Below, piece after piece: positions 1 through 20,673 of a DNA stretch of 64,000 nt (its first letter is position 1; each line of letters begins with the position of its first letter). The DNA is from an uncultured Bdellovibrionales bacterium (GTDB lineage Bacteria > Bdellovibrionota_C > UBA2361 > SZUA-149 > CALKYB01). Location of the stretch: assembly GCA_964510575.1 (NCBI GenBank), contig CAZECN010000005.1, forward strand, positions 18,518 to 82,517, read 5' to 3'. The notes below the pieces were generated by a model. That model searched no databases, was not told the origin of the DNA, and was given only the letters and a program-made list of their open reading frames with translations. The translations under genes and the position numbers were made by a program.

Positions 1-935
1 ACTCCAGTCCTTTAGATTTACTTCAAGAGTTAGTTGCCCTTTATTCCGAGTTTAGAAGAGAGGGAAGAATAAGAGAAGGTCGGGTAATATGTGTTACTCA
101 TGCCAAAGGTGGTACTGGAGCTACTAGCCTGTGTGCCGCACTTGCCGAAGTTTGTAGCGTGCATCAAAGGCGAACCATGCTTTGGGACATGGATGTTGAA
201 ACTAGAGACCTATGCCGCTCTCTTACCGTTAATGGGGCAGAAGCTAAGGTAGTTAGTAGCTGGGTCAACGGTACACGAGATATTTCAAGAGATAGTATTT
301 GTGATGCATTAATCCCGGTAAGTCAGGATGTTTCAGTACTAATGCCTCCTGATAGTATGGCGGAGTCTATGGATTTTGTTTGCCACACTGATGGGATGGC
401 AATTTGTCAAAGACTGCTCGACCTCGCTAGAGCCATGCATGATGTTATCATAATTGATACTGGTGGTAGAATAGGACCTGCCACAGGAGCTCTGATGAGA
501 GTTGCCGATGAGGTTTTAATAGTTATTGATGATACAGTATTAGGTCTAACTGCTTTGGATCTATTCTTAAGTTATGCGAAAGCCTTGGTGGTAGGACCAG
601 ATAGAATTAGTTTTGTGGTTAATGGTTATAGCGGCTCTTTACTAGCAGTTCCTCAGATTGAAGCTGAATTAGAGCCAGTGCATCAGCTTGGTCCTAGACC
701 TTGGAGATTGCCTCCAGTGCCAGTTGATCCTAAAGCATCTCTTTGGCCAGGAAGTGGAAGGACTCTATATAGTATGGGCTCGAAAGGTACTCGAGCCGCT
801 CTTGAGGAAGTTGCCGCAGAGTTAGGGCTGATTTCAAGCGAAGGGTATGAAGTTTCTGGGGACAAAAAGAACTCCAGCTGGTGGGAGAGACTTATTCCTC
901 AAAAAGAGTCCGACGAAATGGGAGTCGAAGACTAG
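1..935 (+). CDS. tadZ: Flp pilus assembly ATPase-like protein TadZ/CpaE (ParA/MinD fold), 5'-partial; reading frame is open from the window edge
   Basis: Translation from nt 3 gives ...GRVICVTHAKGGTGATSLCAALAE..., an atypical Walker-A (KGGxGxT without the GK[ST] lysine) as described for TadZ/CpaE; later IIIDTGG.. and VLIVIDDTVLGL resemble the MinD/ParA core. It sits immediately upstream of flp-cpaB-cpaF-tadBC. Confidence 0.7.
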   Translation, partial: SSPLDLLQELVALYSEFRREGRIREGRVICVTHAKGGTGATSLCAALAEVCSVHQRRTMLWDMDVETRDLCRSLTVNGAEAKVVSSWVNGTRDISRDSICDALIPVSQDVSVLMPPDSMAESMDFVCHTDGMAICQRLLDLARAMHDVIIIDTGGRIGPATGALMRVADEVLIVIDDTVLGLTALDLFLSYAKALVVGPDRISFVVNGYSGSLLAVPQIEAELEPVHQLGPRPWRLPPVPVDPKASLWPGSGRTLYSMGSKGTRAALEEVAAELGLISSEGYEVSGDKKNSSWWERLIPQKESDEMGVED

Positions 936-1072
936 AACTGCGTTTAGGGCTCTTGAATCCGATGTCTTATTGCCTAAAATTCTTAAAATCGCTGAAAGAT
1001 GAAAAAACTACATGATTTTAGTAGCGAAAGGTGTTTTTTAGGGTACATGTTACTGGTTTTAGAAAAGCCAAG

Positions 1073-1089
1073 TTGGCCCGGATTATGCA
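1073..1089 (+). promoter_or_regulatory. Candidate sigma-54 (-24/-12) promoter upstream of flp pilin gene
   Basis: TTGGCCCGGATTATGCAT: GG and GC elements spaced exactly as in the TGGCAC-N5-TTGCA consensus, about 160 nt upstream of the flp start codon. No other support. Confidence 0.25.
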
Positions 1090-1247
1090 TAGTAGTAAGT
1101 AGTTACTATTCCACTGGATTTTAACTGCTCCTCCAAGGAAGCTTGTAGATAGGTTTAAATTTTGGGGGTTTAACAACAATTTAGTTGTATGTATGTTTAA
1201 CAAGACCCTGAGAATAAAGGGTTTATTTTAGGAACGGGAGTTATAAA

Positions 1248-1433
1248 ATGGAAAAAGAAATGAATAACGTAGAAATTCAAAGAGAAGAAAATGAGAAAGG
1301 CGCTTCTATGCTTGAGTATTGCCTTCTTGCTGCATTGATTTCAGTTGTAGCTATTACTGCCATGACTTTTCTTGGTCAGGAAGTTTCGGAAACTTTTAGT
1401 AATGTCGCCAGTACTATCGACACTACAAACTAA
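1248..1433 (+). CDS. flp: Flp/Fap family type IVb prepilin (Tad pilus major subunit)
   Basis: 61 aa. Leader followed by G|ASMLEYCLLAALISVVAITA matches the Flp motif (G-x4-EY plus hydrophobic stretch) for TadV cleavage. AGGA-like RBS lies upstream and a strong terminator downstream. Confidence 0.85.
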   Translation: MEKEMNNVEIQREENEKGASMLEYCLLAALISVVAITAMTFLGQEVSETFSNVASTIDTTN

Positions 1434-1462
1434 TTATTTTTTAAATAATTTTGGAAAAATAG

Positions 1463-1490
1463 AAAAGGGAGATCTTATCTCCCTTTTTTT
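1463..1490 (+). terminator. Rho-independent terminator/attenuator after flp
   Basis: Perfect 7-bp stem GGGAGAT/ATCTCCC with a CTT loop, followed by T7 (aaaagggagatcttatctcccttttttt). Confidence 0.6.
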
Positions 1491-1806: not shown

Positions 1807-2739
1807 ATGGCAACGCGATTTGGAGCATCTAGTCCGGCGCAAACATACGCTACCAAAGTAAGGTGGCTTGTTGGTTTTTTGATTGCGGTGATCACACTTT
1901 TATTTTTGACGTTATTTTACGTGGTGCAAGGTGGGGGCGGAGAGCAAACTGCATCCACTGAGCCAGGTGGTGAAGCTATTCAAGCTGCGAGTGGTGAGTT
2001 AAGTCCGACTACGAAAATCCTTTATGCAAACCAAAGAATTGAAGAGGGTGTGCAAATGACAGAAGCAATGTTCTCTGCTTGGGATGTGCCTTCCGATCGT
2101 ATTCCGGAGGGGGCGATGAAGGAAACTCAAAAAGCTGAAGTAGTAGGTAAATTTTCACAAGCTATAATCAGTGCGAATGTTCCTATTTTACGTGATAGCT
2201 TAGGCGAAGCTAAGAAAGGTGGGGTTATAAACATACCTGCCGGATACAGAGCGGTGACAATAAATATTAGTGCCCGAAGTGGTGTTTCTGGTTGGGCTAA
2301 GCCTAATTCAAGAGTTGATGTTCTTTGGGCTTACACAGACAAAAATAGTAGAGAGAAGAAAGTTTCTACTATTGTGAGATTCGCAAAGGTTCTGTCTGTA
2401 GGTGGAAATAACCAGTCAGGGGATAAAGCAGCGGTCAATCAACAAGGGACTACTGCAACTCTTTTGGTTACTAAACGCGAAGCCAAAAAGATTGAACTTG
2501 CTAGAACATTGGGAAGTCTAACTCTTTCACTAGTTGGACAACAGGAAGAAGTTGTCGGTGACGATGCTTCAAATGATGTGGTTGATATCTCTGACCTAAC
2601 GGGAATAGATGATTCGCAAGTTGGTGAGGCTGAAGAAGAGCCTAATGACGGTGTGATGTATTCAACGGATCCTCGTACTGGTAAAAAGACTCGCTACATT
2701 CTTAAGAATAACAGATGGGTTCCTGACAAGAGTTACTAG
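1807..2739 (+). CDS. cpaB: Flp pilus assembly protein CpaB/RcpC (N-terminal TM, SAF plus beta-clip domains)
   Basis: N-terminal TM segment (WLVGFLIAVITLLFLTLFYVV). The central region (ISANVPILRDSLGEAKKGGVINIPAGYRAVTINISARSGVSGW...RVDVLWAY...ATLLVTKREAKKIELARTLGSLTLSLVG) is typical of CpaB. Position between flp and cpaF fits. Confidence 0.8.
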   Translation: MATRFGASSPAQTYATKVRWLVGFLIAVITLLFLTLFYVVQGGGGEQTASTEPGGEAIQAASGELSPTTKILYANQRIEEGVQMTEAMFSAWDVPSDRIPEGAMKETQKAEVVGKFSQAIISANVPILRDSLGEAKKGGVINIPAGYRAVTINISARSGVSGWAKPNSRVDVLWAYTDKNSREKKVSTIVRFAKVLSVGGNNQSGDKAAVNQQGTTATLLVTKREAKKIELARTLGSLTLSLVGQQEEVVGDDASNDVVDISDLTGIDDSQVGEAEEEPNDGVMYSTDPRTGKKTRYILKNNRWVPDKSY

Positions 2740-2756
2740 GCTTTTCAGGAGAGCTG

Positions 2757-2775
2757 CCGGGTTCGCCCGGTTTTT
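2757..2775 (+). terminator. Possible weak terminator/attenuator after cpaB
   Basis: CCGGG-TTCG-CCCGG hairpin followed by TTTTT. Confidence 0.4.
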
Positions 2776-2821
2776 AAATTTTGGTTTTGTTTATTGGATT
2801 TGATTAAAAGGGACTTTTAAA

Positions 2822-4351
2822 ATGTCAAAAAAAGGCGGCGGAAAGGATCAAGACACTTTAATCGACTTATTTTCCACTAGGTCTAGAGATGGCCAGGAAG
2901 AGGCTCCAGGTATCCCTGAGCAAACTTCCGACTCTAAGGCTAATATGTCACCTGAAGTGGTTGAGAAAGCGAATACTCCTCTTACGACGAAAGCTCCATC
3001 CAAGCGAGCTTCAGGTGGAAGTACTGAGGCTAAAAGTAAAGAGGCGCGGAAGGAAAACAAAAAGGTCAACCTTTCTCCTGTTGCGACAAAGGTGCTGAAA
3101 GAAACCCGTAGAGAACTCGGGAACTCTGGTGAAATTGATGTTGGAGAAGATATCTCTGAGACTCAGATTGCCGCAGCAGTTGATAAGGTTTGCGCTGACC
3201 AAGGGCTTGTCATTGATGATATTGTAAGAGCCGATATCATTGTTCACTTAAAGAGAGACTTGATGGGTTGGGGGGTTTTACAATCCCTGGTGGATAATCC
3301 GGAAGTTACAGATATCCATGTTTATGATTACCAAACAGTAGTTCTTCAACGTGGTAAGAAGAGTGAGACAACTGGTCTTCACTGGCCTTCGCATGAATCC
3401 TACACCACTTTTATTGACCGAGTATTGTTTCGCTTGGGAAAAAGTCTTTCAACTCAGCAGCATACGGTTGACGCGGCTTTTTCTGATGGGAAAAGACTTT
3501 GCGTAATTCATGAATCCGTCTGTGGATCTCGCGGACCATTCATGACAATGCGTGTTCCAAGAGTTCAAGATGCTACTTTGGAAAGTCTAGTTTCCTTTCA
3601 AGTGATGCCTCCTCTGATGGTTAACTACTTGGCAGCGATGGTCAGAAGTTGTGAGCATACTTTCATGGTCGCTGGTGAAACTGGAACTGGTAAGACTACT
3701 TTGATGAGATGTCTGGGGACCCAGTTCGGTCCTGATGAAAGTATCGTTGGGGTAGAGGATACACCTGAACTAAACTACCAGCACCCTTATTATAGAAGCC
3801 TAGTTTCCAGGACTGCCAACAACGAGGGAGTAGGTGAGGTTACTCTTCAGGAGCATATTAAGGCTACTCTTCGTATGTGTCCTACTAGAGTAATTCTGGG
3901 AGAGATGAGAACTCCAGAAGCAGCCGAGTCTTTTTTAGAGGCTGCTCAGACAGGTCACTCAGGAATGTCTACTGTACATGCTAGAAACGCTAGGGAAACT
4001 CTTACCAGACTAGAGAGTTTGCTGGGTCGTGCTCAGAGAGGTGTTTCGATGGATATTATTCGACAGCAGATTGCCTTGGCAGTTGATGTTTGTATTTGGA
4101 ATGTCAGGGAGAAGGTTTCGGGGCGAGTAAGGTGTGGTGAGATTATTGAAGTTGGTCATTTTGTAGAGGGTAGTATTCAGATCAGACCGATGTTTAAGCT
4201 TGTTCAGGAAGGAGAAAATCCAGTTTGGGAGGTTCAATCCTGGTCAAGTAACTACGAAGAAGTTTTAGAGAAAAATGGCATTGTTCTTGGTGATGCGCCA
4301 CAGTTCCTTTCTTTCGGAAATATGGGCGGTGAAGCATCCGGCCGAGGATAG
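2822..4351 (+). CDS. cpaF: Tad pilus secretion ATPase CpaF/TadA (type II/IV secretion NTPase family)
   Basis: Walker A VAGETGTGKTT; conserved VILGEMRTPEAAESFLEAAQTGHSGMSTVHARNARETLTRLESL block typical of TadA/CpaF/VirB11 ATPases. The first ~120 aa are low-complexity and lysine-rich, so the true start may be internal. Confidence 0.9.
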   Translation: MSKKGGGKDQDTLIDLFSTRSRDGQEEAPGIPEQTSDSKANMSPEVVEKANTPLTTKAPSKRASGGSTEAKSKEARKENKKVNLSPVATKVLKETRRELGNSGEIDVGEDISETQIAAAVDKVCADQGLVIDDIVRADIIVHLKRDLMGWGVLQSLVDNPEVTDIHVYDYQTVVLQRGKKSETTGLHWPSHESYTTFIDRVLFRLGKSLSTQQHTVDAAFSDGKRLCVIHESVCGSRGPFMTMRVPRVQDATLESLVSFQVMPPLMVNYLAAMVRSCEHTFMVAGETGTGKTTLMRCLGTQFGPDESIVGVEDTPELNYQHPYYRSLVSRTANNEGVGEVTLQEHIKATLRMCPTRVILGEMRTPEAAESFLEAAQTGHSGMSTVHARNARETLTRLESLLGRAQRGVSMDIIRQQIALAVDVCIWNVREKVSGRVRCGEIIEVGHFVEGSIQIRPMFKLVQEGENPVWEVQSWSSNYEEVLEKNGIVLGDAPQFLSFGNMGGEASGRG

Positions 4352-4379
4352 AGACTGTTTTTAACACAAGGTTGATCGC

Positions 4380-5399
4380 ATGAGTATTGAAACTATCATT
4401 ATTGCCCTGCTGGTTTTACTTTTAATCATAGTAGCTGTGGTAGTTGTAATTTATACCTCCCGTCAGAGAGGTTCAGCTAGTGCTGTCAGTCACGCTAAAG
4501 TTAGCTCTAACCTTAGAGCCTTGGTTACTGCACAAAGGGCGGAAGCGACTAACTTTGGTCAGGGCGTCCCTAGTGGAGGTTCCACTAAAGATAGCCTTGC
4601 TTTAGCAGCAGCTGAAGAAGCGGAAGGGGATGAAAATCAACGAAAAGCTTCCGATAAGGAAAGCTTAGAGAAACGGTTAGTTTATGCTAACTGGCCAATT
4701 ACTCCATTTCAATTTAGAGCTATTCAAGTGGTAGCGACAATTTTGTTGTTTATTGCGGCACGTGCAATTTTTGGTTTTTGGATCCAAGCTCTAGCTATAT
4801 TGCTAACCCCTCTCATTGTTGGAGCAGTGTTAGACTACTTTGTGAAGAAGCGTTTTAAGGCTTTTGATGAAGATTATCCGGTAATGCTTCTTTCCTACGT
4901 TGGTCTTCTTAAAACTGGTATGAGCACAATCGTAGGCCTGGAGGCAGCAGGAAAGGGACTAGAGGAAGGTTCTTTGGTACGTGGTGAGATTGAGCTTTTG
5001 ATTGAACGACTAAGAGTTGGGATGACTGAGGATCAGGCGATTAACGCGTTCGGAGAAGATATTCCTCATCCAGAGTTAGAGCTTTTCGTACAAAGTCTTA
5101 TTTTGAGTAGAAGGGTTGGTGGAACACTTAGCGAAACTCTTGAAAGGTTGGCAAAGCAAGTTAGAAAAAGGCAGCAGTTCCGTTCCCAAGCTGTTGCTGC
5201 GGTTGGTATGGAGCGTTCCTCGCTTTGGGCAATTGCAGGTATCATGTCATTGTTGCTTGGTTATTTGATGTTGTCATCTCCAGAGTTAATTACTCCAGCA
5301 TTTAAGGACGATTTTGGTCGATCTATATTTGAAGCAGGTTTGTTCCTGATTATCGTTGGCATGTATTGGTCACGCCGGGTTACTGACATAAAGGTTTAG
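4380..5399 (+). CDS. tadB: Tad pilus inner-membrane platform protein TadB (T2SS-F domain)
   Basis: N-terminal TM; cytoplasmic T2SSF-like helical domain (VGLLKTGMSTIVGLEAAGKG...RLRVGMTEDQAINAF); C-terminal TMs. Synteny cpaF-tadB-tadC. Confidence 0.75.
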   Translation: MSIETIIIALLVLLLIIVAVVVVIYTSRQRGSASAVSHAKVSSNLRALVTAQRAEATNFGQGVPSGGSTKDSLALAAAEEAEGDENQRKASDKESLEKRLVYANWPITPFQFRAIQVVATILLFIAARAIFGFWIQALAILLTPLIVGAVLDYFVKKRFKAFDEDYPVMLLSYVGLLKTGMSTIVGLEAAGKGLEEGSLVRGEIELLIERLRVGMTEDQAINAFGEDIPHPELELFVQSLILSRRVGGTLSETLERLAKQVRKRQQFRSQAVAAVGMERSSLWAIAGIMSLLLGYLMLSSPELITPAFKDDFGRSIFEAGLFLIIVGMYWSRRVTDIKV

Positions 5400-5400: not shown

Positions 5401-6324
5401 ATGGACGCTAATCTAATAATATTTCTCGTCATAGGTATTTCAGTTATTGGAGTAGGTGTTTTTGCCTTCGTTTTTATTGGAGGTGATACCAATGCTCAGA
5501 AGGCTGGAATAAGAGATTTGATGGGAGGTATCGATCCAGATGCACTTTCTGCGGTTGGTGAAGATGCTGTTGATCCTTTCGATTTAGAGAGAATAAAGCA
5601 GAATACTGGTAGAGCAAAATCGGTAAAAAAGAAGGAAGACCTGCAGGCTAAGATGTTTAAGGCAGGGATTTTTTCTGCGAAAGAGCGGAAGAGGTTTAAT
5701 ACCATGCGAATGGTATGCCTGGTTCTATTTCCTATTGTAATTCCGCTTCTAATTTGGCTTGTTGTTCCTAAGCTGCAGCTAGTTATTATGGGTCTAGTTA
5801 TGGGTGTATTTGCCGGTCTGGTATACCCAACAGTGAAACTTGATAAGAAAATTGAAGCGAGGCAGGAAGATACTCTTTATTACTTGCCACTAGTAATTGA
5901 GCAAGTGTCGATCGGTGTTAGTAGTGCTCTGGATATTGGACCATGTATCGCTAACATTGTTAGCATGGCTAACGAAAGAGACTCTCACAATGCTGTCACT
6001 GAGATGCTGATCCATGTAGAAAAACTAATGCGTTCTGGACTTAATCTTGAGGATGCGCTTGTTGAAGTTGGAGAAGCCAGTGGTATGGGAGAAGTTAAGC
6101 ATGCCTTTATGTTTCTTGCCCAGTGCGCGAAGCATGGTGGAGAGATATCAAGACAGCTGCAAGAACTTGCTGATTCAGTGATGGTTCAGAGGCAGACCCA
6201 GGTTGAAGCTAAAATTACTGCTTTGCCAGTAAAAGCGACTGGACCTCTAGCGATGGTATTTGCTGGTTTCTTTGCGCTTCTTTTTGCAGGCCTTTTCGTC
6301 CGTCTGATGGGAGCTTTTGGCTAG
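5401..6324 (+). CDS. tadC: Tad pilus inner-membrane platform protein TadC (T2SS-F domain)
   Basis: Polytopic membrane protein with T2SSF-like region (LPLVIEQVSIGVSSALDIGPCIANIV...). Start lies 2 nt after the tadB stop. Confidence 0.75.
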   Translation: MDANLIIFLVIGISVIGVGVFAFVFIGGDTNAQKAGIRDLMGGIDPDALSAVGEDAVDPFDLERIKQNTGRAKSVKKKEDLQAKMFKAGIFSAKERKRFNTMRMVCLVLFPIVIPLLIWLVVPKLQLVIMGLVMGVFAGLVYPTVKLDKKIEARQEDTLYYLPLVIEQVSIGVSSALDIGPCIANIVSMANERDSHNAVTEMLIHVEKLMRSGLNLEDALVEVGEASGMGEVKHAFMFLAQCAKHGGEISRQLQELADSVMVQRQTQVEAKITALPVKATGPLAMVFAGFFALLFAGLFVRLMGAFG

Positions 6325-6475: not shown

Positions 6476-8680
6476 ATGGGCGGTTTGTCAAAAATATTTT
6501 CACCAGTATTAGCAACCTTTGACAGGCTAGGGCGTTCGGGATTTTTTGTTTCACTGCTTCTTCTTGTAGTAATTTCACTTTTTTTAGTTCCACTTCCACC
6601 AATCCTTCTTGACTTACTCCTAGTTCTCAATATCGTGGTTGCCCTAGTTTTGTTGTTGCGTAGTCTCTATATGAGTGAGCCCTCTGCCCTCTACGCTTTT
6701 CCCACCATACTTTTGATGACAACTCTTTTTAGACTGGCTCTTAATGTCAGTTCTACAAGGCTTATTCTGTTGGGAGGCAAGGACAGTCTTGGAGCCGCAG
6801 GTAGCGTAATTGAATCATTCGGTACTTTTGTTGTTAAGGGAAATTTCGGAGTTGGTGCGATTATCTTTGCCGTGATTGCGGTTGTGAATTTTGTAGTAAT
6901 TGCAAAAGGTTCCGCAAGGGTCGCTGAGGTGTCAGCAAGATTTGCCTTGGATTCATTGCCTGGACGTCAATTAGCAATAGACTCTGATTTAAGAGCTGAG
7001 ACAATTACTCGAGAACAGGCAGAGTTTCGACGAGAAGAACTGCGCAGAGAGTCTCAGTTTTTCGGATCTATGGATGGTGCGATGAAGTTTGTGCAAGGTG
7101 ATGCCATTGCAGGCTTTGTCATAACTTTTATCAACTTGATTGGTGGTGTTGCTATAGGAATTAGTGCCGGAATGGAGTTTCCCGAAGCCATTAATACCTT
7201 TGGTTTGCTGACTATTGGGGATGGTTTAGTTGGCATTATTCCTTCTCTACTAATATCGGTTTGTGCCGGAATCATAGTAACCCATGTGGGAGGATCTGAT
7301 AACCAATCGAGCGGGAGTCAGGTTTTTCAGCAGTTGTTAGGAGACCCGGGAGCCTTAGTAATGGCAGGTTTGGTGCTAATACTACTAGGTATTATTCCAG
7401 GATTTCCTTTTATTCCGTTTTTCGGGGTGGGCTTGTCAGTGCTTCTTTTAGGTTCAATGGCTTGGGGATTTTTAGGAGGAGGTTCTCGCAACTCTCCAGT
7501 GAAAGTTAGATTAAATAATCTTCAAACTCCTACTGCGCAGCTGGGTAGTGGTTTTGGAACTGGATTGCCTGCGATGCCAAGTCAAAGTATGGCCCCTTCG
7601 TTGGAATACTTTAGGCTTAAGCCTCTCGTTGTTGAAATGTCTTCGAATAACTTGAGTGGGGCGGGTAAGTTTTTAGAGGAAGATTTTACTAGGTATTTTA
7701 ACCTGCTTCGTGACCGAGTTTATAAAACTAAAGGACTTCTTGTGCCTGAGGTTTCTTTTTTGGAAGGTTCAACTCTTGGCGAGGGTGATTTTTCTCTTGT
7801 CGTGAGGGAAAGGAATATAAAAAATATTACCTTGAACGAAAACCATCATTTCGTTTCACTCAGTCCCGGACAGTTAGGAACTTTGGGAATTCCGGCTACC
7901 AATCATCAAACTCATCCTTTAACTTGTTCTGGAAGTTCATGGATTGAATCGAGTGATGTTACCGAGGCTACTCTACAGAGATTGGGGGTGGAACTTATCA
8001 ACCCATCTCAGTACCTGGCCTTAGAAGTTATTGGGGCCGCCATTTCTAATATCGATTCTATATTTGGTTTATCTGAAGTGTCTCGACTTGTAGAAATTAG
8101 TAAAGCTACCGATGCGAGATTAGTAGCTGAGGTATTCGATGGAGAGGTCGTGTCTGTAGCTGAATTCTCTGACTTACTTCGAAAACTTGCCCGAGAAAAT
8201 TTGTCGGTGAGAGATATTAAGCAAATTATGGAAGGAGTCTTGGAGTATCACTCCAGAACTCCGGAGACTGAGGATAGACAGGATTGGCTTTCTGGGCTTC
8301 ATGAGCACCTTCGCTTGATCTTGGTAGGCTCTTTGGTTGGTGAGATGAACGGAGAAAGTGACTTTTTTGCTTTTGGTTTATCTGCTGAAGTTGAAGATGA
8401 GTTTCGCTCTGCTGTATCTATGTGGGATTCTCCTCGTTCAAGGTTGCCTTTAGATCCAGATATTTCTAGGGGGATTAAGCGATCTTCCAGTCTACTTTTT
8501 GCTCCAGTTTTAGAGAGAGGGGCTTCGCCAGTGGTAGTACTTTGCCCTGGAGAAATTAGACTTGCCGTTCAAGAATATTTTGTTTCTCAGTATGATTCTT
8601 CAGTTTGGTTTAGAACCGTAGCACATGAAGAACTTGATGAAAGATTTAACGCTCAACTAGTAGGAGTAATTAATGCCTGA
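6476..8680 (+). CDS. sctV: Type III secretion export-gate protein SctV (FlhA/YscV/LcrD, FHIPEP family)
   Basis: 734 aa with 8 N-terminal TMs. Family-signature blocks are present: KDSLGAAGSVIESFGTFVVKGNFGVGAIIFAVIAVVNFVVIAKGSARVAEVSARFALDSLPGRQLAIDSDL and SMDGAMKFVQGDAIAGFVITFINLIGG. A large C-terminal cytoplasmic domain follows. Confidence 0.85.
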   Translation: MGGLSKIFSPVLATFDRLGRSGFFVSLLLLVVISLFLVPLPPILLDLLLVLNIVVALVLLLRSLYMSEPSALYAFPTILLMTTLFRLALNVSSTRLILLGGKDSLGAAGSVIESFGTFVVKGNFGVGAIIFAVIAVVNFVVIAKGSARVAEVSARFALDSLPGRQLAIDSDLRAETITREQAEFRREELRRESQFFGSMDGAMKFVQGDAIAGFVITFINLIGGVAIGISAGMEFPEAINTFGLLTIGDGLVGIIPSLLISVCAGIIVTHVGGSDNQSSGSQVFQQLLGDPGALVMAGLVLILLGIIPGFPFIPFFGVGLSVLLLGSMAWGFLGGGSRNSPVKVRLNNLQTPTAQLGSGFGTGLPAMPSQSMAPSLEYFRLKPLVVEMSSNNLSGAGKFLEEDFTRYFNLLRDRVYKTKGLLVPEVSFLEGSTLGEGDFSLVVRERNIKNITLNENHHFVSLSPGQLGTLGIPATNHQTHPLTCSGSSWIESSDVTEATLQRLGVELINPSQYLALEVIGAAISNIDSIFGLSEVSRLVEISKATDARLVAEVFDGEVVSVAEFSDLLRKLARENLSVRDIKQIMEGVLEYHSRTPETEDRQDWLSGLHEHLRLILVGSLVGEMNGESDFFAFGLSAEVEDEFRSAVSMWDSPRSRLPLDPDISRGIKRSSSLLFAPVLERGASPVVVLCPGEIRLAVQEYFVSQYDSSVWFRTVAHEELDERFNAQLVGVINA

Positions 8681-8734
8681 TTTTAGGGTGTTTTTTTAAA
8701 ATTTAAAAACAAATGAAATGGTAAAATTTCTGAA

Positions 8735-11380: not shown

Positions 11381-11401
11381 TTAGCGATTGGAATATTCTT
11401 A

Positions 11402-14142: not shown

Positions 14143-14414
14143 TAGAGCCGAATAGGCGCTTTATCTAAATTAATTTGTCTAACTTAATTCGCCAAGATCG
14201 GCATATAGCAGCAGTTTGAGCTTAATTATAGTTGGTTGCACCGTTGGTGGTGCTATTGTAGCCTTTCTCTCAAGACTTAGCACATTCGCGCTATTGCTCT
14301 TGTCTTTTTGCATACAATTTCAAGAGAATTACTTGTTTATAGCGCAAGGCAATGGCCAAGAACATGACTTGGTCAACTAGATTTCTAGAGTTGAATATTT
14401 TAGCAAAACCCACC

Positions 14415-15275
14415 ATGAAAGTTTACCTGTTACTTTTTCTAATATTGGCAGCAAGCTCAGGTTGTAAACAGAACACTGAGTTGTTGAGCAGCTTATCTTC
14501 TAGAGAGTCTATCGAGGTACTCGTTCGCTTAGGCGAGATAGGAATTGAAGTTGAAAGAGTTAAAACTGGTGGAGCTAATAGCTCTTATAAAATTCAGGTG
14601 GCCCAAAGTCAGCATGCTCAAGCTTTAAAAGCACTTCATCAACTGGGCTTACCTCGAGCAATAAAAGATAGTTTAGATTCAATTACTAAACCTGCAGGGC
14701 TTATTCCCAATCCAGCTAAGATCTCTTCTTTGAGACTAGATCATGCTCTAGGGTTGGAGGTTGAAAGGTTGCTTGTTGCTTTACCGGGAGTGACAGAAGC
14801 TAAGGTGGTTGTCCGCTCAAACTTGGGTAGCAGAGACCTTGGTGATAAAACAGGAGGATCCTCTGCTTCAGTTGTCCTTCGTTACCTTTCCCGGACGGGG
14901 AAGTTTTCCTTGTCAGATGAAAGAGTAAAAAAGCTGGTAGCTAAAGGTGTACCAGATTTGAATGAAGAGTCGGTTTTGGTTGAAACTAGCCAGGTTTTTT
15001 TGTCTTCTGGAGCAACAGGTATTGGGGTAAGCGGAGGAGGTGAGGCTAAGGCCTTAAAGTCAATTTGGCCCTTCGGTATTGAAATTGCTGATGATGAGTA
15101 TACCAAGGCTGTGTATATGCTAGCTGGCTCAGGTCTTCTTTTCATCTTTTTAGGTTTGATTCTTGGTTATTTGCTATCTTCTACCTCTGGTAGACTGTTG
15201 TCAGGGGGAAATAGTAGAGCGTTGAGTAATGACAGAAAGAACCTTGAAAGAGGTACAGGGAATTTTTTAAGATAG
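14415..15275 (+). CDS. sctJ: T3SS inner-membrane ring lipoprotein SctJ (YscJ/PrgK/EscJ family)
   Basis: Lipoprotein-type signal MKVYLLLFLILAASSGC like YscJ; ring-building motif region (IEVLVRLGEIGIEVERVK...LEVERLLVALPGVTEAKVVVRSN); C-terminal TM (YMLAGSGLLFIFLGLILGYLL). Its ~290 aa size fits SctJ rather than flagellar FliF. The six-frame ORF begins at 14352; start chosen at the M preceding the signal peptide. Confidence 0.7.
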   Translation: MKVYLLLFLILAASSGCKQNTELLSSLSSRESIEVLVRLGEIGIEVERVKTGGANSSYKIQVAQSQHAQALKALHQLGLPRAIKDSLDSITKPAGLIPNPAKISSLRLDHALGLEVERLLVALPGVTEAKVVVRSNLGSRDLGDKTGGSSASVVLRYLSRTGKFSLSDERVKKLVAKGVPDLNEESVLVETSQVFLSSGATGIGVSGGGEAKALKSIWPFGIEIADDEYTKAVYMLAGSGLLFIFLGLILGYLLSSTSGRLLSGGNSRALSNDRKNLERGTGNFLR

Positions 15276-15318: not shown

Positions 15319-15546
15319 ATGCCAAACTTAAGTAAGTTTAGAGCCTTAACTAACCGTGAGCAGGCGGTGGTTGCGTTGGCTGTTTTGCTAGATGGCCACG
15401 ATTCTGTGGAGATGCTTGTAAGCGATAGGGATCGAGGAGTTGCTCTTTCTAGGGCGGCTGAGGATCTAGTTGTGCTATCGCCAGACTTGAGAATGCCCTT
15501 GATGGGAACTCTTCTGAGAAGGGCACTTGAAGAAATTGACACGTGA
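15319..15546 (+). CDS. Small helical hypothetical protein in T3SS gene string (function unknown)
   Basis: 75-aa ORF on the operon strand with protein-like composition. An antisense ORF (15282-15542) overlaps, so coding status is uncertain. Confidence 0.3.
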   Translation: MPNLSKFRALTNREQAVVALAVLLDGHDSVEMLVSDRDRGVALSRAAEDLVVLSPDLRMPLMGTLLRRALEEIDT

Positions 15547-15664
15547 TCCCTCGCATTGAATATGGTTTGTTTTTCTTTGGTGGCAGCATCTTACCTATAG
15601 GGCAGTTTTCAGTTTGTAGGGTAGGTTTTCTGGAGGTGAACTTTTCAAAGAGGTTTAAAGTATC

Positions 15665-16141
15665 TTGAGATCTAAGCAGAAATTAGAAGTAATACTTCGC
15701 TCTCTTGAGGTTGAAGAGAGAGGCGCTCTGGAAGAAAAACTTAGAATTGAAGAGATTGCAGATGCTCGGGTGAAGGGGTTGTCGGGCTTGGTCGAAGAAA
15801 GAACAGTTTTATATTCTAAGCTCGACGACCTTTCGCAGTCCCAGAAGCGGGCTTTGGTCGGGGGGAGTAAGGCTGTTAGTCCAGCTGAGATACAGGCTTT
15901 TAAGGGTAGAATAAACAAACAAATTGAAGAGTTGAAGGTTAAAATCGACAAAGCCGATGAGCAGTATAAATTAGCCCGAGAACGTCTGGAACTGGCTGAG
16001 AACGAGTTGTTAGAGGCTCGTATAGGCCGGAAAAAGGTCGAGAAACTTTTGGATTCCAAGAAAGCCCGAGAACAGGTAAAACAGGAGATGGTGGAGGAAC
16101 GGCTACTAGAAGAATATAGTAGCGGAAAAGTGCGCAATTAA
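15665..16141 (+). CDS. Coiled-coil T3SS accessory protein, SctO(FliJ)- or SctL(FliH)-like candidate
   Basis: 158 aa, almost entirely charged heptad-like coiled coil (EELKVKIDKADEQYKLARERLELAENELLEARIGRKKVEKLL). Position between sctJ and sctQ mirrors the sctL/sctO positions in injectisome operons. Apparent TTG start preceded by AAAGAGG. Confidence 0.4.
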   Translation: MRSKQKLEVILRSLEVEERGALEEKLRIEEIADARVKGLSGLVEERTVLYSKLDDLSQSQKRALVGGSKAVSPAEIQAFKGRINKQIEELKVKIDKADEQYKLARERLELAENELLEARIGRKKVEKLLDSKKAREQVKQEMVEERLLEEYSSGKVRN

Positions 16142-16155: not shown

Positions 16156-17214
16156 ATGTCTACAGTCGGAAAATTAGTCGGAAAAGATGCGAGTCCAATA
16201 CCCTGGTCCCCCAAGGATTTGTTGCCGACTCTATCCTCTAATCAAATTCGATTTAGCAGGGGGTTTTTGCGGAGTGATGTTAGTGTATGGCTTGCGGACT
16301 TTGTAAAGTCTTGGCAATTGCTTCTACATTCTCTTGGCTTAAAAGTTGAACTAAGTTCAGTCAATAATCAATTTAATTTTCCTGAATCTCTGAGTCGAGT
16401 GATACCCATTGAATTGGATGACGAGACTGCAGTCATTGGAATGGATGATGAAAGTCAGGAGATAGTTTCATCTGTAGTGGCGAAAGGATCTGAGTCAACC
16501 GCTGTTGATGTTATTGTCGAATACTTTGAACGTCGAATGCTTAGTTGTGTTAGTCAGCATTGGTCTGGTCCGATGCCTCTTAAAGCTAGGTATCTAGCAG
16601 ATAGTGAATCTACAGCGGTGGATGTTGTTGGTACCATTTGCTTTGTTTTTACCGCAGGAGGTAAAGACTTTAAACTGTGGCTTGGTTTAGGGCCAAGGGC
16701 TGTTGAGAGAATAGACGGCCTATGGAGAAAACAACTTTTTGAAGAAAAAAGTAATTTGCCCGGTCCGAAACTGCCTCAATTATCTACTGTGGATATAGAC
16801 TTAGTTGAGTTGCTTGTTCCCCCTGCTCTTTTAATTGACTACATGAGGAGTGGTACCGTGGTGGAGTTAGACCTTCCGACAAGCAATAAGGTTAGAGTGA
16901 ACCTGAACGGAAATTTCTGGGCTTATGGGCAGCTGGGACAGTTTGAAGGTAATTTCGCGGTTACGCTTGAGGACTTTGAGGCTAAAGAAAAGTCAGAAAA
17001 CGATAGCTCTAGCACAACCAAAGTTAGTGTTCAGCTTGCGGTTGAAGAAATAGATCGTGAGGCTGTTTTAGAGTTCGGCCAGGAGCAGTCTATTCTTTCT
17101 ACTCAAGTTGCAGTTAACGATAGAGCCAGTCTCATTATTAGTGGAGAAAGAGTTGCCTCTGCTATAATTGGCGAGTTGGATGGTAAGTTTGCTTTGACTG
17201 TGTTGCCGAAATGA
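16156..17214 (+). CDS. sctQ: T3SS cytoplasmic sorting platform/C-ring protein SctQ (FliN/YscQ SpoA domain)
   Basis: C-terminal SpoA domain: GTVVELDLPTSNKVRVNLNGNFWAYGQLGQFEGNFAVTLEDF, and a second SpoA-like segment DRASLIISGERVASAIIGELDGKFALTV. 352 aa. Stop overlaps the sctR start (ATGA). Confidence 0.7.
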   Translation: MSTVGKLVGKDASPIPWSPKDLLPTLSSNQIRFSRGFLRSDVSVWLADFVKSWQLLLHSLGLKVELSSVNNQFNFPESLSRVIPIELDDETAVIGMDDESQEIVSSVVAKGSESTAVDVIVEYFERRMLSCVSQHWSGPMPLKARYLADSESTAVDVVGTICFVFTAGGKDFKLWLGLGPRAVERIDGLWRKQLFEEKSNLPGPKLPQLSTVDIDLVELLVPPALLIDYMRSGTVVELDLPTSNKVRVNLNGNFWAYGQLGQFEGNFAVTLEDFEAKEKSENDSSSTTKVSVQLAVEEIDREAVLEFGQEQSILSTQVAVNDRASLIISGERVASAIIGELDGKFALTVLPK

Positions 17215-17888
17215 CAGTGTCTGAAATAATTGTTGGACTAGGGTATGATTTTCTTCCCTTAGTAAGCATAGGTTTCTTTGTTATTCTATTTAGCAGTTAC
17301 GTCAAAATATCTACAGTTCTATCTATTTTAAGATCAGGACTAGGGGCTTTTAGTATACCGTCTGCCATGGTTACTGGTTCTCTCGCTTTGGTCTTGAGCT
17401 TTTTTGTTATGTATCCGTACATTAATGAGGCTGCTTCTTCTATAGACAGGGTGGTAAGTTCCTCTGGATCGGTTAATTCTAGTGTTAGGGTTAAGGCTCT
17501 AGGAGAAGCTGGTAAGTCTTGGAAGAAGTTTTTGTTGAAGCATAGTGATCCGGAAGTGATTAGTGAACTTGCTACAATCGCCAATAAGATTGACGAATCG
17601 GCTGAGACTAAAGTAGCCGATAGCCTTGATACTAAGGAGCTTAGAGATTGGAGAATTTTGGCGCCTGCCTTTTATCTCTCTGAGTTAAGAGAGGCTTTCG
17701 CAATCGGATTGAGTCTCTTTTTGCCTTTTTTAGTTGTAGATCTATGCGTAGCTCATATTTTGGTGGCTTTAGGAGTGAATAAGGTTGATCCTTCTATGGT
17801 CTCTTTGCCCCTAAAACTCTTGCTTTTTGTTATGTTAGACGGATGGGCGTTGATCGCAGGAAATCTTCTATCGAGTTATGGAGGTTGA
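17211..17888 (+). CDS. sctR: T3SS export apparatus protein SctR (FliP family)
   Basis: FliP/SctR-like TM topology and conserved blocks (SIPSAMVTGSLALVLSFFVMYPY...AFAIGLSLFLPFLVVDLCVAHILVALGV...LPLKLLLFVMLDGWALIAGNLLSSY). Confidence 0.85.
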   Translation: MTVSEIIVGLGYDFLPLVSIGFFVILFSSYVKISTVLSILRSGLGAFSIPSAMVTGSLALVLSFFVMYPYINEAASSIDRVVSSSGSVNSSVRVKALGEAGKSWKKFLLKHSDPEVISELATIANKIDESAETKVADSLDTKELRDWRILAPAFYLSELREAFAIGLSLFLPFLVVDLCVAHILVALGVNKVDPSMVSLPLKLLLFVMLDGWALIAGNLLSSYGG

Positions 17889-18158
17889 ATGGACTTAAGC
17901 CTTGTAGTTGGAGCTTTGTCTGTTGTGGTCAATTTGACCATATGGGTATTCGCTGCTGCCCTGGCTGGAGGAGTTGTTTCTGGGATTATTAGAGTAGTTA
18001 CAGGAATGGAGGAGGAGATACTTAGTATTTTTTTTCGAGCCCTAGCTGTTTTTTTTCTTCTTTATATTTTTTCAGGTCCTGGATGGGAGGTCGTCTTGGA
18101 ATATACGGAGAGAATTTGGGGAGAGAAGAGTACCTATTCTTTCTCGACGGGTAACTGA
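17889..18158 (+). CDS. sctS: T3SS export apparatus protein SctS (FliQ family)
   Basis: 89-aa two-TM protein (LVVGALSVVVNLTIWVFAAALAGGVVSGIIRVVTGMEEEILSIFFRALAVFFLLYIF) typical of FliQ/SctS. Starts 1 nt after sctR. Confidence 0.8.
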   Translation: MDLSLVVGALSVVVNLTIWVFAAALAGGVVSGIIRVVTGMEEEILSIFFRALAVFFLLYIFSGPGWEVVLEYTERIWGEKSTYSFSTGN

Positions 18159-18887: not shown

Positions 18888-18900
18888 GAGCTCCCGGTAA

Positions 18901-19647
18901 GTGTCTGAAAAACGTTATCCAATTTCCGATTTAAAAAGAGAGAAGCTTCGTAAGGCAGGAGTTATTGCCTTGGGTAGAGAGCTAAGTGCTTTCGGGAGTG
19001 TTGTTTCCTTGGGATTGGTTTGTGGAGTTTTGTTGAGTAGTGGTTTGGTAGAGAGTGTTATAGAAATTTGGTCTGCGCTTGACCATGATGGTGTCTCGGT
19101 AGCTGTCGTTCTGCAAAAAAGCTTTTTATCAGCGACCAAAGTACTTTTCACATGCTTAACCATAGCTAGTTTTATTTATATTCTTGGGCACTTATTACAA
19201 AGCGGCTTTCTCTTCCAGCCAAGACTTCTGTTCTCAGGAGTCGCTGAGCGCCTTGGGTTTGGACGTCTTTTTAGCTTTAGCTTTACTGAAGGCCTATTTC
19301 TTTTGATTGCCTCTATCGTTTGGGCTGGAGTTAGCTATTTGACGGTAAATTTATTGCTGTATGAACTGAGTGAAATCAAACCAGATAGTTATTTTCAATT
19401 GGATCCCGTGGTATCCAAAGAAGTTTTAGCCGAACGTTTCGATTCTTTGATTGGACAGATTTTCCCGCTTGTATTTGGTGTTGTGGTTCTCGCGAGCTTT
19501 TTGTTTGGTGTCATTATTTTTTTGGTGAGGAAGATTGCTTTTGATGCCAAGCACATGATGACCAGGCAGGAGGTCGAGCAGGAGGCTAAGGAGTATGAAG
19601 TGGATCAAAACATGAAAAGAGCCCAGTATGAGCGGCGCAATTCATGA
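18901..19647 (+). CDS. sctU: T3SS export switch protein SctU (FlhB/YscU family), membrane domain only; C-terminal autocleaving NPTH cytoplasmic domain absent
   Basis: N-terminus (EKRYPISDLKREKLRKAGVIALGRELSAFG) matches FlhB/SctU; 4 TMs; ends ...MMTRQEVEQEAKEYEVDQNMKRAQYERRNS, equivalent to the FlhB linker MSKQEVKDE...KGRIRQ, then a stop. Only 248 aa versus the usual ~350. No NPTH-containing ORF in any frame downstream. Confidence 0.75.
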   Translation: MSEKRYPISDLKREKLRKAGVIALGRELSAFGSVVSLGLVCGVLLSSGLVESVIEIWSALDHDGVSVAVVLQKSFLSATKVLFTCLTIASFIYILGHLLQSGFLFQPRLLFSGVAERLGFGRLFSFSFTEGLFLLIASIVWAGVSYLTVNLLLYELSEIKPDSYFQLDPVVSKEVLAERFDSLIGQIFPLVFGVVVLASFLFGVIIFLVRKIAFDAKHMMTRQEVEQEAKEYEVDQNMKRAQYERRNS

Positions 19648-19758
19648 ACTAGATGGTATTGAAGAAAAGGCCACTTTTTACTGGACTATTATAGTGTTAG
19701 GTTATGGCCTTGAGGATAGCTCAATTTTTGGCAATTTAGACTTAATTAAATAGGTCTT

Positions 19759-20265
19759 ATGGTGGATGGTAAAGATAAAATTGAATCTAAGCAGACCTTG
19801 CTAACGGGACGTAAGCGATCTGTAAAAGTTTCTAATAAGAGTGAAACCCATCGACCTGAATCATTGGTCAAATCAGCTCCCTCGGAAGAATCTCAAGTCG
19901 ATAATAATGAGTTAGCTCGGTCTGAATCTCGTGAGGTGGTTGAGAAAGCCCCTCAATCTGCTCCACCTGCTGAAAGTAAAGCTTCGGCGGAGCCTGATCT
20001 AGCGGTTCCGAGTGCAGAAACTAGTTTCAAACCATTAGAGTTTTCAAAGGGTCAACAAGTTCGGGAGTATTCTTCGGCTAGCCCTCTTTCCATCTTATTG
20101 CCAAGAATTGGAGATTTGCGGGCACTTTCTCAGAATGAGGCTTTTTTAAATAATGCAAGGGAGAGTTTGAAGGATAGTTCAGCTAGTCGGGATAGAAATC
20201 CAATTACGGAAAGGTCGATGATTCAACAAGTCTTAGATTGGCTATCTATGGGGGAGCGCCAGTAG
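19759..20265 (+). CDS. Hypothetical Ser/Ala/Glu-rich, probably disordered protein (possible T3SS-associated substrate or regulator)
   Basis: 168-aa ORF on the operon strand between sctU and the TPR chaperone-like gene; low complexity, no recognisable domain. Confidence 0.4.
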   Translation: MVDGKDKIESKQTLLTGRKRSVKVSNKSETHRPESLVKSAPSEESQVDNNELARSESREVVEKAPQSAPPAESKASAEPDLAVPSAETSFKPLEFSKGQQVREYSSASPLSILLPRIGDLRALSQNEAFLNNARESLKDSSASRDRNPITERSMIQQVLDWLSMGERQ

Positions 20266-20277
20266 CTACTGTATCAA

Positions 20278-20673
20278 ATGAATGTTTACCCTCCAGAACT
20301 TTTAAAATCGATGTACGAACTAGGTCGAATGTATTTTGAAATGGGGTATTTTGCTCCTGCTGAAAAAATATTTCAAGGACTAGTCGCTGTAGATAAAGGG
20401 GAGACTCCAGCTCGGGTAGGCTTAGGTCTGGTTAAGATTGAGAGAGGTTTTTATCAAGAAGCAGCGATGAATTTTAGAAGTGCGATTCAAAAAGGACAAT
20501 ACCAGGTGCAGGCTAAAATAGGGATGGCCTTTTCTTTTATTGCCCAGAATGAGTTGTCTAGAGCCAGATCGATGCTATCTCAGATTGAAAATGACCATGG
20601 CGATAAGATCATGGAGGATCAAGGTATTCGAATTCTTTTTGAAGCTGCCTATATCCGATGCGAAAAGGACTAG
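20278..20673 (+). CDS. Small TPR-like protein, resembling class II T3SS chaperones (SycD/LcrH/CesD type)
   Basis: 131 aa, three TPR-like helical repeats (MYELGRMYFEMGYFAPAEKIFQGLVAVD...ARVGLGLVKIERGFYQEAAMNFRSAIQ...). Size and position at the end of the T3SS gene string fit a translocator chaperone. Confidence 0.4.
   Translation: MNVYPPELLKSMYELGRMYFEMGYFAPAEKIFQGLVAVDKGETPARVGLGLVKIERGFYQEAAMNFRSAIQKGQYQVQAKIGMAFSFIAQNELSRARSMLSQIENDHGDKIMEDQGIRILFEAAYIRCEKD

Follow-up and report, generated by a model that had tools for sequence, protein, structure and literature searches.

A conserved gene cluster combining Tad pilus genes, type III secretion-derived genes and a Ser/Thr kinase/FHA module in an uncultured Bdellovibrionales bacterium and its relatives

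We have analyzed a 64,000 nucleotide (nt) stretch of DNA from an uncultured Bdellovibrionales bacterium (GenBank assembly GCA_964510575.1, contig CAZECN010000005.1, positions 18,518 to 82,517; hereafter the window), which contains a gene cluster where the genes for a Tad pilus are followed by genes derived from a system for type III secretion (T3SS) and by genes for a pseudokinase and FHA domain proteins. Based upon the list of open reading frames (ORFs) and profile searches, 20 genes, all on the forward strand, fill positions 1–20673 of the window, and 12 of the 19 junctions between them measure 60 nt or less (Table 1). The original prediction, which was made from the sequence alone, had described at least 18 same-strand genes with short or overlapping junctions, a Tad module in the order tadZ-flp-cpaB-cpaF-tadB-tadC and an sctV gene located 151 nt past tadC; the profile searches agree with this order, the re-measured tadC-sctV spacing is the same, and the proposed gene identities proved to be essentially right. 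The cluster begins 5' of the window, where the contig sequence obtained from ENA encodes a PP2C phosphatase, an FHA protein and an active-type Ser/Thr kinase (STK) on the same strand as tadZ.

Table 1. Features of the cluster within the window (profile matches are given with their expectation values, E; TM, transmembrane; aa, amino acids).
Feature	Position	Strand	Basis or remark
tadZ/cpaE, ParA/MinD-like ATPase	1..935	+	AAA_31; TIGR03815 CpaE homologue E 3e-15
flp prepilin, 61 aa	1248..1433	+	PF04964 E 4.7e-12, above cut-off
Hairpin and T-run directly 3' of flp	1463..1489	+	GGGAGAT-CTT-ATCTCCC then TTTTTTT; probably an attenuator or an intrinsic terminator
cpaB/rcpC, N-terminal TM anchor, periplasmic	1807..2739	+	PF16976 E 1e-21; TIGR03177 128 bits vs cut-off 71
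Second terminator-like site, 3' of cpaB	2756..2771		Hairpin scan
cpaF/tadA pilus ATPase	2822..4351	+	T2SSE E 1e-32
tadB platform protein	4380..5399	+	T2SSF E 3e-12
tadC platform protein	5401..6324	+	T2SSF E 6.5e-7
sctV, FHIPEP export gate, 734 aa, full length with cytoplasmic domain	6476..8680	+	PF00771 E 1e-165
psk, TM Hanks-type pseudokinase PsK, 881 aa	8735..11380	+	Pkinase E 2.7e-7, below cut-off; HEAT_2
FHA1, multi-FHA, C-terminal tail-anchor TM	11402..12793	+	Two FHA stretches E 1.5e-31; Yop-YscD_cpl
FHA2, soluble, N-terminal zinc ribbon and C-terminal FHA	13021..14142	+	UPF0547 and FHA
sctJ, inner-membrane ring lipoprotein	14352..15275	+	PF01514; TIGR02544 E 1.6e-28, below cut-off
s75, 75-aa helical protein	15319..15546	+	57–85% identical across long-form loci
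sctO/fliJ-like stalk protein	15665..16141	+	PF02050 E 5.7e-9; YscO E 1e-3; TIGR02473 E 8e-9
sctQ, SpoA/FliN-type sorting-platform protein	16156..17214	+	FliMN_C E 8e-12
sctR	17211..17888	+	FliP family E 5.7e-50
sctS	17889..18158	+	Bac_export_3 E 1e-5; also matched by FliR/FliQ-seeded profile
Probable sctT, 239 aa	18168..18887	+	Assigned solely from gene position and six predicted TM segments
sctU, membrane domain only, 248 aa	18901..19647	+	Bac_export_2 profile positions 2–235 of 335
u168, 168 aa, low-complexity	19759..20265	+	No family match; conserved in L092
TPR protein, 131 aa, T3SS class II chaperone-like (LcrH/SycD, SctY, CdsG)	20278..20673	+	TPR_19

The Tad-derived part of the cluster contains Flp, CpaF/TadA, TadB, TadC, TadZ and CpaB/RcpC. 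The window holds the C-terminal 258 or more codons of tadZ, the N-terminus lying outside it; the whole gene encodes 418 aa (L007 8432–9688), and the identity of TadZ across the relatives ranges from 51 to 98%. The prepilin Flp carries the processing motif G/ASMLEY (reading ...EKG/ASMLEY...), which has the G/xxxxEY form of Tad prepilins. For CpaF, which is 57–89% identical in the relatives, the top match among the sequences of solved structures is the Caulobacter CpaF (E 7e-44), and no FHA domain was detected in it by profile search. The alignment of TadC contains a conserved motif, YLPLVIEQxxIGVSSxLDxGPC, that is diagnostic of this TadC family. The Tad secretin RcpA/CpaC is absent from all ORFs of the 64-kb window, from the 8.7 kb upstream of it and from the gene lists of the relatives, and it may be encoded elsewhere in the genome. 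Neither the prepilin peptidase TadV/CpaA nor the minor pilins TadE/F/G are found in the window, in the 8.7 kb upstream or in the fused loci of the relatives, and tadD is found neither in the cluster nor in the 64-kb window.

The T3SS-derived part is led by sctV. Among the sequences of solved structures its product matches the injectisome protein YscV (7alw, 372 bits) better than FlhA (304 bits), and in NCBIfam it scores higher with the hrcV model (511 bits) than with FlhA (482 bits), both scores being below the cut-offs, as are all of the NCBIfam equivalog matches of T3SS-type proteins at this locus. The universally conserved charged residues of SctV are all retained in both of the subclades described below. 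At residue 207 (about nt 7094–7096), within an MKFVxGD motif and beside a conserved Asp, Gln is found in every SctV protein of the fused clade; the corresponding residue is Arg or Lys in flagellar FlhA and Lys in the sampled injectisome and Archangium SctV proteins. This substitution in the charged cluster of the gate is specific to the clade.

The sct assignments of the original prediction are borne out by profile matches for sctV, sctJ, sctQ, sctR and sctS, one of the small ORFs that it had noted after sctJ is identified as SctO by a FliJ-like match, and its last two sct calls need qualification. The product of the gene called sctT has no match in Pfam, NCBIfam or the sequences of solved structures and is not significantly similar to its positional counterpart in L006, which is itself matched by a FliR-seeded profile (E 4.5e-13). 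SctU is truncated and stops after the fourth TM helix; the flhB and SctU models are matched only to about position 236 of about 345. The NPTH motif is absent from every frame of the window, and SctU lacks the autocleavage/substrate-switch domain. A separate ORF for this C-terminal domain was considered and rejected, since the adjoining u168 has no match and NPTH occurs in no frame. The two other SctU orthologues seen are 262 and 194 aa long; the word-indexed search for SctU homologues returned 1 protein, too few for a deep alignment.

SctJ has a lipobox, a C-terminal TM segment and a short cytoplasmic tail. The small protein encoded after it, s75, has no match in Pfam, NCBIfam, the sequences of solved structures or a fold search (single-sequence AlphaFold2 (AF2) model with a predicted local distance difference test score of 71; no fold match, E > 5). 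A likeness to the N-terminal domain of FliG, which had been suspected from its place after sctJ and from a LTxREQAVVALAVLL motif, is unsupported by the Pfam, NCBIfam and structure-sequence searches. The source annotation places a 41-codon ORF (15543–15668, forward strand) between s75 and sctO, overlapping at both ends; it is probably no real gene, because L005 leaves no room for it. The TPR protein at the 3' end of the cluster matches TIGR02552 (E 7.7e-9), CdsG (E 1.4e-4) and SctY (E 1.7e-4), all below cut-off, and u168 is possibly a substrate or partner of this adjoining protein. Genes for SctN, SctL, SctD, SctI, SctF and SctC are found neither in the window, nor in the 8.7 kb upstream, nor in the gene lists of the relatives. 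The T3SS part is more reduced than was assumed in the original prediction. In the same gene lists and the 64-kb window there is no F1-type ATPase (PF00006) and no secretin, and the needle SctF, inner rod SctI, secretin SctC and translocators have no profile match at the locus. The DNA upstream of the window, to which the original prediction had looked for the outstanding Tad and sct genes, thus yields in its inspected 8.7 kb no Tad secretin, peptidase or TadE/F/G and no sctN, sctC, sctD, sctF or sctI, and contains the PP2C, FHA and STK genes.

The third component of the cluster consists of phospho-signaling proteins. PsK is called a pseudokinase here, as had been predicted, because its catalytic motifs are degenerate (HRDLKPEN reads LGDICDDS and DFG reads SYF) and its Pfam score lies below the cut-off. 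In an AF2 model, based upon a shallow alignment (the word-indexed search for PsK homologues gave 5 proteins only), PsK comprises a kinase-like domain (residues 1–254), a disordered linker, one TM helix (about 389–416) and an all-alpha HEAT-like solenoid (440–877). The Foldseek matches of the N-terminal domain are the bacterial Hanks kinases Stk1, PknA and PknB (E 3e-8). Since the N-terminal domain is cytoplasmic and there is a single TM helix, the modelled solenoid would be periplasmic. In a set of 1.84 billion, a threshold of E <= 1e-30 gives 286 representatives (50% identity clusters) for the family of PsK. The two FHA proteins that had been predicted after the pseudokinase are confirmed by profiles, and both weakly match the TagH/FHA model for type VI secretion systems (T6SS). 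The TM segment of FHA1 is located at 438–456 of its 463 residues, with nothing beyond the membrane, a layout that is the same in all orthologues. Either protein was considered as the missing SctD and rejected, FHA1 having no periplasmic part and FHA2 no TM segment.

The genes upstream of tadZ encode a tail-anchored PP2C, a protein of 358 aa whose FHA domain is C-terminal, and an STK of 527 aa in which HRDLKPEN and DFG are both intact. The tail anchors in the kinase/phosphatase/FHA set place it at the inner membrane. Farther upstream (L007 238–4018) there are genes for a 136-aa protein, a hybrid histidine kinase with 17 TM segments and a response regulator. The 136-aa protein, encoded just 5' of PP2C, is conserved at 37–43% in distant fused loci (L100, L104 and L108), and the histidine kinase gene precedes it both in the contig of the window and in L100. 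The conserved cluster may therefore start yet farther upstream than PP2C.

Scans of the window for promoters and terminators showed no enrichment over shuffled sequence. The scan found no terminator-like site between tadC and sctV, and a single transcript for the cluster is left unproven because terminator-like hairpins follow flp and cpaB (Table 1).

The gene order of this cluster is conserved in a wide range of relatives. A search of 5.8 billion proteins gave, as the nearest homologues of SctV, those of uncultured bacteria that bear the labels Bdellovibrionota, Bdellovibrionales, Oligoflexia or "Deltaproteobacteria," and on every contig fetched for SctV homologues of 39–83% identity the genes from PP2C to sctS are in the same order. 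A scan of genome contigs with the SctV alignment, for which the matches listed were mostly flagellar and injectisome loci, provided three useful loci among these matches (L010, L011, and L026; SctV 48, 35, and 32% identical) that have the same order, and L140 is arranged likewise. The order common to the relatives, with SctV identities of 32–83%, is PP2C-FHA-STK-TadZ-Flp-CpaB-CpaF-TadB-TadC-SctV-PsK(-FHA-FHA-SctJ-s75-SctO-SctQ-SctRSTU).

Metagenome contigs were scanned with the TadC alignment, which gave 47 loci, 36 of them with at least 600 nt downstream of TadC. SctV follows TadC in 34 of these 36 loci, PsK follows SctV in all of the loci that bear on this point (15/15), and PP2C and STK are located upstream in 14/15. 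The one clear exception, L137, is another Tad locus, CpaF-TadB-TadC-TadZ-CpaB-TadE-TadG, without the kinase module (7558–14196); the other, L128, has no SctV in its mere 826 nt downstream of TadC. L137 represents the nearest Tad locus lacking SctV, and a gene for a TraG/TraD-like coupling protein adjoins it on the opposite strand. In seven of the metagenome loci the tblastn match of SctV starts 3–36 nt past the end of the TadC match, and the gap between the tadC and sctV ORFs is about 10–30 nt in L006, L010, and L026. An earlier metagenome scan with the PsK alignment returned no loci. Because the adjacency of Tad and SctV genes recurs in about 50 independent loci, it is far beyond chance, and the fusion of Tad and T3SS genes is an ancient, conserved trait of the whole clade and not a one-off event. 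The invariant unit across these loci extends from PP2C through PsK, and within it SctV and PsK are the only invariant partners of the Tad genes on the T3SS side.

Past PsK, the loci are of two forms. In the long form, PsK is followed by FHA1, FHA2, SctJ, s75, SctO, and SctQ and usually then by SctRSTU; this form is present in the window and in L003, L005, L006, L010, L090, L096, and L100. The place of sctRSTU after sctQ is taken in L090 by a methyltransferase gene; in the same locus, genes for a creatininase-family protein and a fatty-acid hydroxylase are inserted between flp and cpaB (2692–4711). The short form stops at PsK and continues with unrelated genes (L011, L104, L111, L125, L130, L134, L135, and L138), which in L011 are a thioredoxin-like gene, tig, clpP, clpX, and lon. 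The long form is probably ancestral, because L100 is of this form even though its SctV is just 33% identical to that of the window, and the extra T3SS genes were probably lost or moved several times. The short-form genomes may encode the missing T3SS genes elsewhere. In the short-form L135, the end of a fliP-like gene followed by fliQ- and fliR-like genes (1–1180) lies 2 kb upstream of PP2C, with a convergent gene in between; these genes are either flagellar or part of the system.

The placement of SctV was examined by neighbour-joining on simple distances with 199 SctV/FlhA sequences, and a 72-taxon subset was bootstrapped 100 times. The SctV proteins of the fused loci form one clade (bootstrap 100), which splits into subclades A and B (100 each). 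The split of the fused clade, the myxobacterial Archangium proteins and the injectisome SctV proteins from FlhA likewise has a bootstrap of 100, so that the comparison with flagellar, injectisome and myxobacterial clades that the original prediction had proposed gives a non-flagellar placement; the Archangium SctV proteins are not the sister group of the fused clade (bootstrap 0). An orphan FHIPEP gene in L091 (GCA_030431455.1, 10001–12172), 37% identical to the SctV of the window, is located between lexA and an ABC transporter without T3SS, flagellar or Tad neighbours, and it branches with the Archangium/L061 group and not with the fused clade.

The pairwise distances of SctV track those of CpaF (r = 0.88, Mantel p = 0.001, n = 20), hence the Tad and T3SS halves of the cluster are inherited together; the corresponding correlations of SctV are r = 0.59 with TadC and r = 0.43 with PsK. 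Between the window and the BBAY59 relative (L092) the synonymous sites are saturated, the proteins are 48–93% identical and every ORF is intact. Judged from these sequences all of the cluster genes are under purifying selection, a qualitative statement since saturation of dS precludes the computation of dN/dS. SctT, SctU, and SctJ are the fastest-evolving proteins in this comparison.

Beyond the cluster, the rest of the window is ordinary chromosome, with genes for RNase PH, RdgB, tRNA-Pro, BipA, arginase, MetH and the lipopolysaccharide core, and an Rfam scan of the window found nothing besides the tRNA-Pro. At its 3' end the cluster is flanked by two genes of the sigma-70 family. The first (21455–22333, reverse strand) has a weakly FliA/WhiG-like N-terminus, and the second (22745–23524, forward strand) matches an ECF-superfamily model with 49.9 bits against a cut-off of 42.9. 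In L092 both are conserved, as is a 110-aa gene located between the cluster and the sigma-70-family genes; they may be dedicated regulators. A 1317-aa protein encoded at 51660–55613 (reverse strand), with faint NHL-repeat and sortilin/Vps10 (beta-propeller) matches only, may be a large surface or secreted protein. The ORF at 27991–28599 (forward strand) combines DUF1232 with a DnaJ domain at the C-terminus; the GTG listed as its start overlaps tRNA-Pro (27948–28024), and the true start is probably farther downstream. DUF4124 and DUF2959 proteins, which are mostly seen in Gammaproteobacteria, are encoded at 25524–26306 and 45995–46654.

The arrangement of these genes is, in our judgement, explained with moderate confidence by the view that the cluster is one conserved, vertically inherited unit for a single phospho-regulated envelope apparatus of Tad and T3SS derivation, representing a single-locus counterpart of the Kil system (a Tad-type system) and the needle-less T3SS (T3SS*) of Myxococcus. 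According to this proposal, the tail-anchored STK and PP2C would set phospho-threonine marks at the inner membrane, and the three or four FHA proteins would read these marks and trigger local assembly upon contact with a target cell or surface, in the manner of the PpkA/PppA/Fha1 switch of T6SS. Firing of assembly by phosphorylation is expected because the kinase/PP2C/FHA set mirrors this switch and sits at the inner membrane. TadZ, CpaF, TadB, TadC, and CpaB would polymerize the Flp pilus, while a nonamer of SctV, powered by the proton-motive force and served by no dedicated ATPase, would export proteins lacking signal peptides over the inner membrane. Its partners in the long-form loci would be SctR, SctS, SctT, the membrane part of SctU, SctJ, SctQ, and SctO, with the TPR protein and u168 as a possible chaperone-substrate pair, and export would be limited to a single substrate class. 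The pilus would then carry or push the cargo outward in the style of the pseudopilus of a type II secretion system (T2SS), as in the model proposed for Myxococcus (PMC12075869), which offers such a gate its simplest purpose. Since an ATPase, outer ring, needle and switch are lacking, the T3SS part would at most move proteins over the inner membrane by the proton-motive force, and flagellar export without FliH/FliI provides a precedent for such ATPase-independent export. The predicted topology of PsK is that of SctD, with a phospho-signaling fold on the cytoplasmic side, one TM helix and a large domain in the periplasm. Its gene adjoins sctV in every case, and PsK is the best candidate for an adaptor that would link SctV, the Tad platform and the phospho-signal. 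By analogy with its nearest counterparts, the system probably serves in contact-dependent attack on other cells.

A number of observations weigh against this proposal. The Kil system of Myxococcus assembles and kills without T3SS* (PMC12075869). The short-form loci have no local sctRST, yet SctV is not known to work without them, and the secretin, prepilin peptidase, minor pilins and T3SS ATPase must either lie elsewhere or be absent. The hairpins after flp and cpaB and the 151-nt gap between tadC and sctV may divide the cluster of the window into several transcripts. The probable assignment of SctT is based upon its position and topology, the SctV tree upon neighbour-joining of simple distances, and a predatory lifestyle is assumed from the labels on the metagenome-assembled genomes of the relatives. 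The physical coupling of Tad and SctV, and the function ascribed to it, are proposed from gene order and sequence.

A more far-reaching version, which we put forward tentatively and as a substantial possibility rather than an expectation, is that SctV and PsK are integral subunits of a Tad-derived nanomachine, i.e., that this is a true chimera of a T3SS and a type IV filament in which the pilus stands in for the needle, cargo crosses the inner membrane through the T3SS gate instead of Sec, and Ser/Thr phosphorylation fires assembly. The original prediction had left the choice between a coordinated pair of machines and a genuine hybrid, and the short-form loci tilt the balance toward a hybrid without proving it.

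The co-location of the two gene sets could also reflect no more than co-regulation and co-inheritance of a Tad pilus and a needle-less T3SS* as separate machines, which stand side by side and share a kinase/FHA switch without contact. We consider this unlikely, although by no means negligible. Myxococcus, which encodes both machines at separate loci and whose Kil system assembles without T3SS* (PMC12075869), sets an example for it. The tadC-sctV gap and the hairpins in the window would suit it, as does the presence in long-form loci of a nearly complete export gate together with SctJ, SctQ, and SctO. It becomes less likely because SctV and PsK are all that remains next to the Tad genes in the short-form loci, and SctV alone is no machine. 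The T3SS part, moreover, lacks an ATPase, the SctD ring and its own route across the outer membrane, the gaps of about 10–30 nt in several relatives suggest one transcript, and SctV of the fused clade is never found away from TadC in the loci where this can be checked.

Less probable again, and in our view improbable, is that SctV, with PsK, was co-opted as a non-secretory subunit of the Tad machine, for example in coupling to or sensing of the proton-motive force, the other T3SS genes of the long-form loci being a relic in the process of loss. Such an origin could account for at least 8 loci in which 7–10 kb downstream of SctV show no further T3SS gene, for L090 with no sctRSTU after sctQ, for the loss of the switch domain from SctU, for the fast evolution of SctT, SctU, and SctJ, and for the retention of the charged residues of the ion pathway in SctV. 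However, the T3SS genes of long-form loci are intact over saturated synonymous divergence and down to an SctV identity of 33% (L100), which argues for function and not decay; the genes missing from short-form loci may lie elsewhere, as the fliP/Q/R-like genes of L135 illustrate; and SctV acting without SctRST has no precedent. A reading of the T3SS genes as those of ordinary flagellar export, or of the arrangement as an assembly chimera, beside a Tad operon can practically be dismissed: several sources annotate homologues as "FlhA," and SctO and SctQ match the FliJ and FliN profiles, but SctV is split from FlhA with a bootstrap of 100, SctJ fits the YscJ lipoprotein family and not FliF, profile searches of the window found no rod, hook, FliF, FliG or motor genes, and the same junction is present on contigs from many independent samples and assemblers, which refutes the flagellar identity that the original prediction had named as the finding that would overturn it.

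This locus is of interest in several respects. It provides the first genetic evidence outside Myxococcus that Tad and T3SS machines belong together, and thereby independent comparative support for a functional partnership; whether Kil and T3SS* form one complex or two is explicitly unresolved (PMC12075869; PMC12428579). The partnership of a Tad system with a needle-less T3SS is seen here as a single, further reduced and kinase-controlled cluster in another phylum, which is apparently undescribed. The locus names PsK as the candidate adaptor and defines a minimal set consisting of Tad, SctV and PsK. Were the chimera to prove true, it would constitute a new class of envelope machine, with the short-form loci (Tad, SctV, and PsK) as its minimal version. 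The persistence of a T3SS gate without ATPase, outer ring, needle and switch domain bears on the evolution of the injectisome from flagella and on the question of a minimal T3SS. With at least 109 SctV clusters and the 286 PsK representatives, from marine, freshwater and other samples, the clade is large and deep.

In comparison with known systems, the cluster shares Flp, CpaB, CpaF, TadB, TadC, and TadZ, in typical sizes and order, with canonical Tad loci (viz. Aggregatibacter tad and Caulobacter cpa), and it differs from them in having no rcpA/cpaC, tadV/cpaA, tadD or tadE/F/G and in the position of sctV and psk directly after tadC. With the injectisomes (Ysc, SPI-1, and chlamydial Cds) it shares SctV, SctR, SctS, probably SctT, SctJ, SctQ, SctO, the membrane domain of SctU and a TPR chaperone-like gene, whereas SctN, SctL, SctK, SctD, SctC, SctF, SctI, SctP and translocators are not present at the locus and its SctU lacks NPTH; the locus is neither an injectisome nor flagellar. 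The T3SS of Chlamydia is reported to be associated with FHA domains and Ser/Thr kinases (CdsD and Pkn5). The PpkA/PppA/Fha1 pathway of T6SS resembles the cluster in combining a membrane Hanks kinase, a PP2C and an FHA reader inside a secretion cluster, but its output machine is a different one, and the present cluster has three or four FHA proteins, a pseudokinase and no T6SS structural genes.

The Tad/Kil-like system of Bdellovibrio bacteriovorus, a member of the same phylum as the labelled relatives, is essential for predation and has Tad genes near FHA, TPR and histidine-kinase genes (bioRxiv 10.64898/2026.07.08.737194; PMC13200544). That system is dispersed, with a TadZ-TadA fusion, a secretin and minor pilins, unlike the present cluster, and the papers on Kil/Tad in Bdellovibrionota make no mention of a T3SS link (PMC13200544; bioRxiv 10.64898/2026.07.08.737194); the paper on the B. 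bacteriovorus system contains neither "FlhA" nor "type III". We found no published description of a fused Tad-T3SS locus in the full-text literature, the coverage of which is incomplete, in agreement with the original prediction, to which no such locus was known. Its further statement, that Kil and a needle-less T3SS act together from separate loci, matches the published work (PMC12075869; PMC12428579; PMC10433427).

The closest comparison is with Kil and T3SS* of Myxococcus, which are encoded at separate loci (mxan_3102-3108, mxan_4648-4661, and mxan_2434-2464; PMC8460266; PMC12075869; PMC10433427) and whose co-occurrence appears to be confined to the Cystobacterineae according to a 2025 review (PMC12428579). 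Kil recruits T3SS* to contacts with prey, where the two co-localize, and a joint complex has been hypothesized and is unproven (PMC12075869; PMC12428579); in the model proposed for Myxococcus, cargo is passed to the Tad pilus, which delivers it like a T2SS pseudopilus (PMC12075869). T3SS* is a basal body without secretin, needle or translocon that retains SctD, SctI, SctN, and SctL (PMC10433427). The present locus has none of these four proteins, its SctU lacks the C-terminal domain and its SctV belongs to a separate clade; because of the absence of SctD, SctI, SctN, and SctL and the separate SctV clade, the locus is not a member of T3SS*. Kil is an FHA-rich Tad cluster in which the ATPase KilF has an FHA domain at its N-terminus and KilC is a short secretin (PMC8460266). 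Compared with Kil by its published description only, the present cluster is likewise FHA-rich, whereas its CpaF has no detectable FHA match and the locus contains no secretin, prepilin peptidase or Tip-type minor pilins. The likeness to Kil and T3SS* taken together consists in the pairing of a Tad-type motor with a T3SS devoid of secretin, needle and translocon, in the many FHA proteins and in the LcrH-like TPR genes. What sets the present locus apart from them is that both gene sets are contained in one conserved cluster instead of three loci, and that a dedicated STK/PP2C pair and a TM pseudokinase form an integral part of it.

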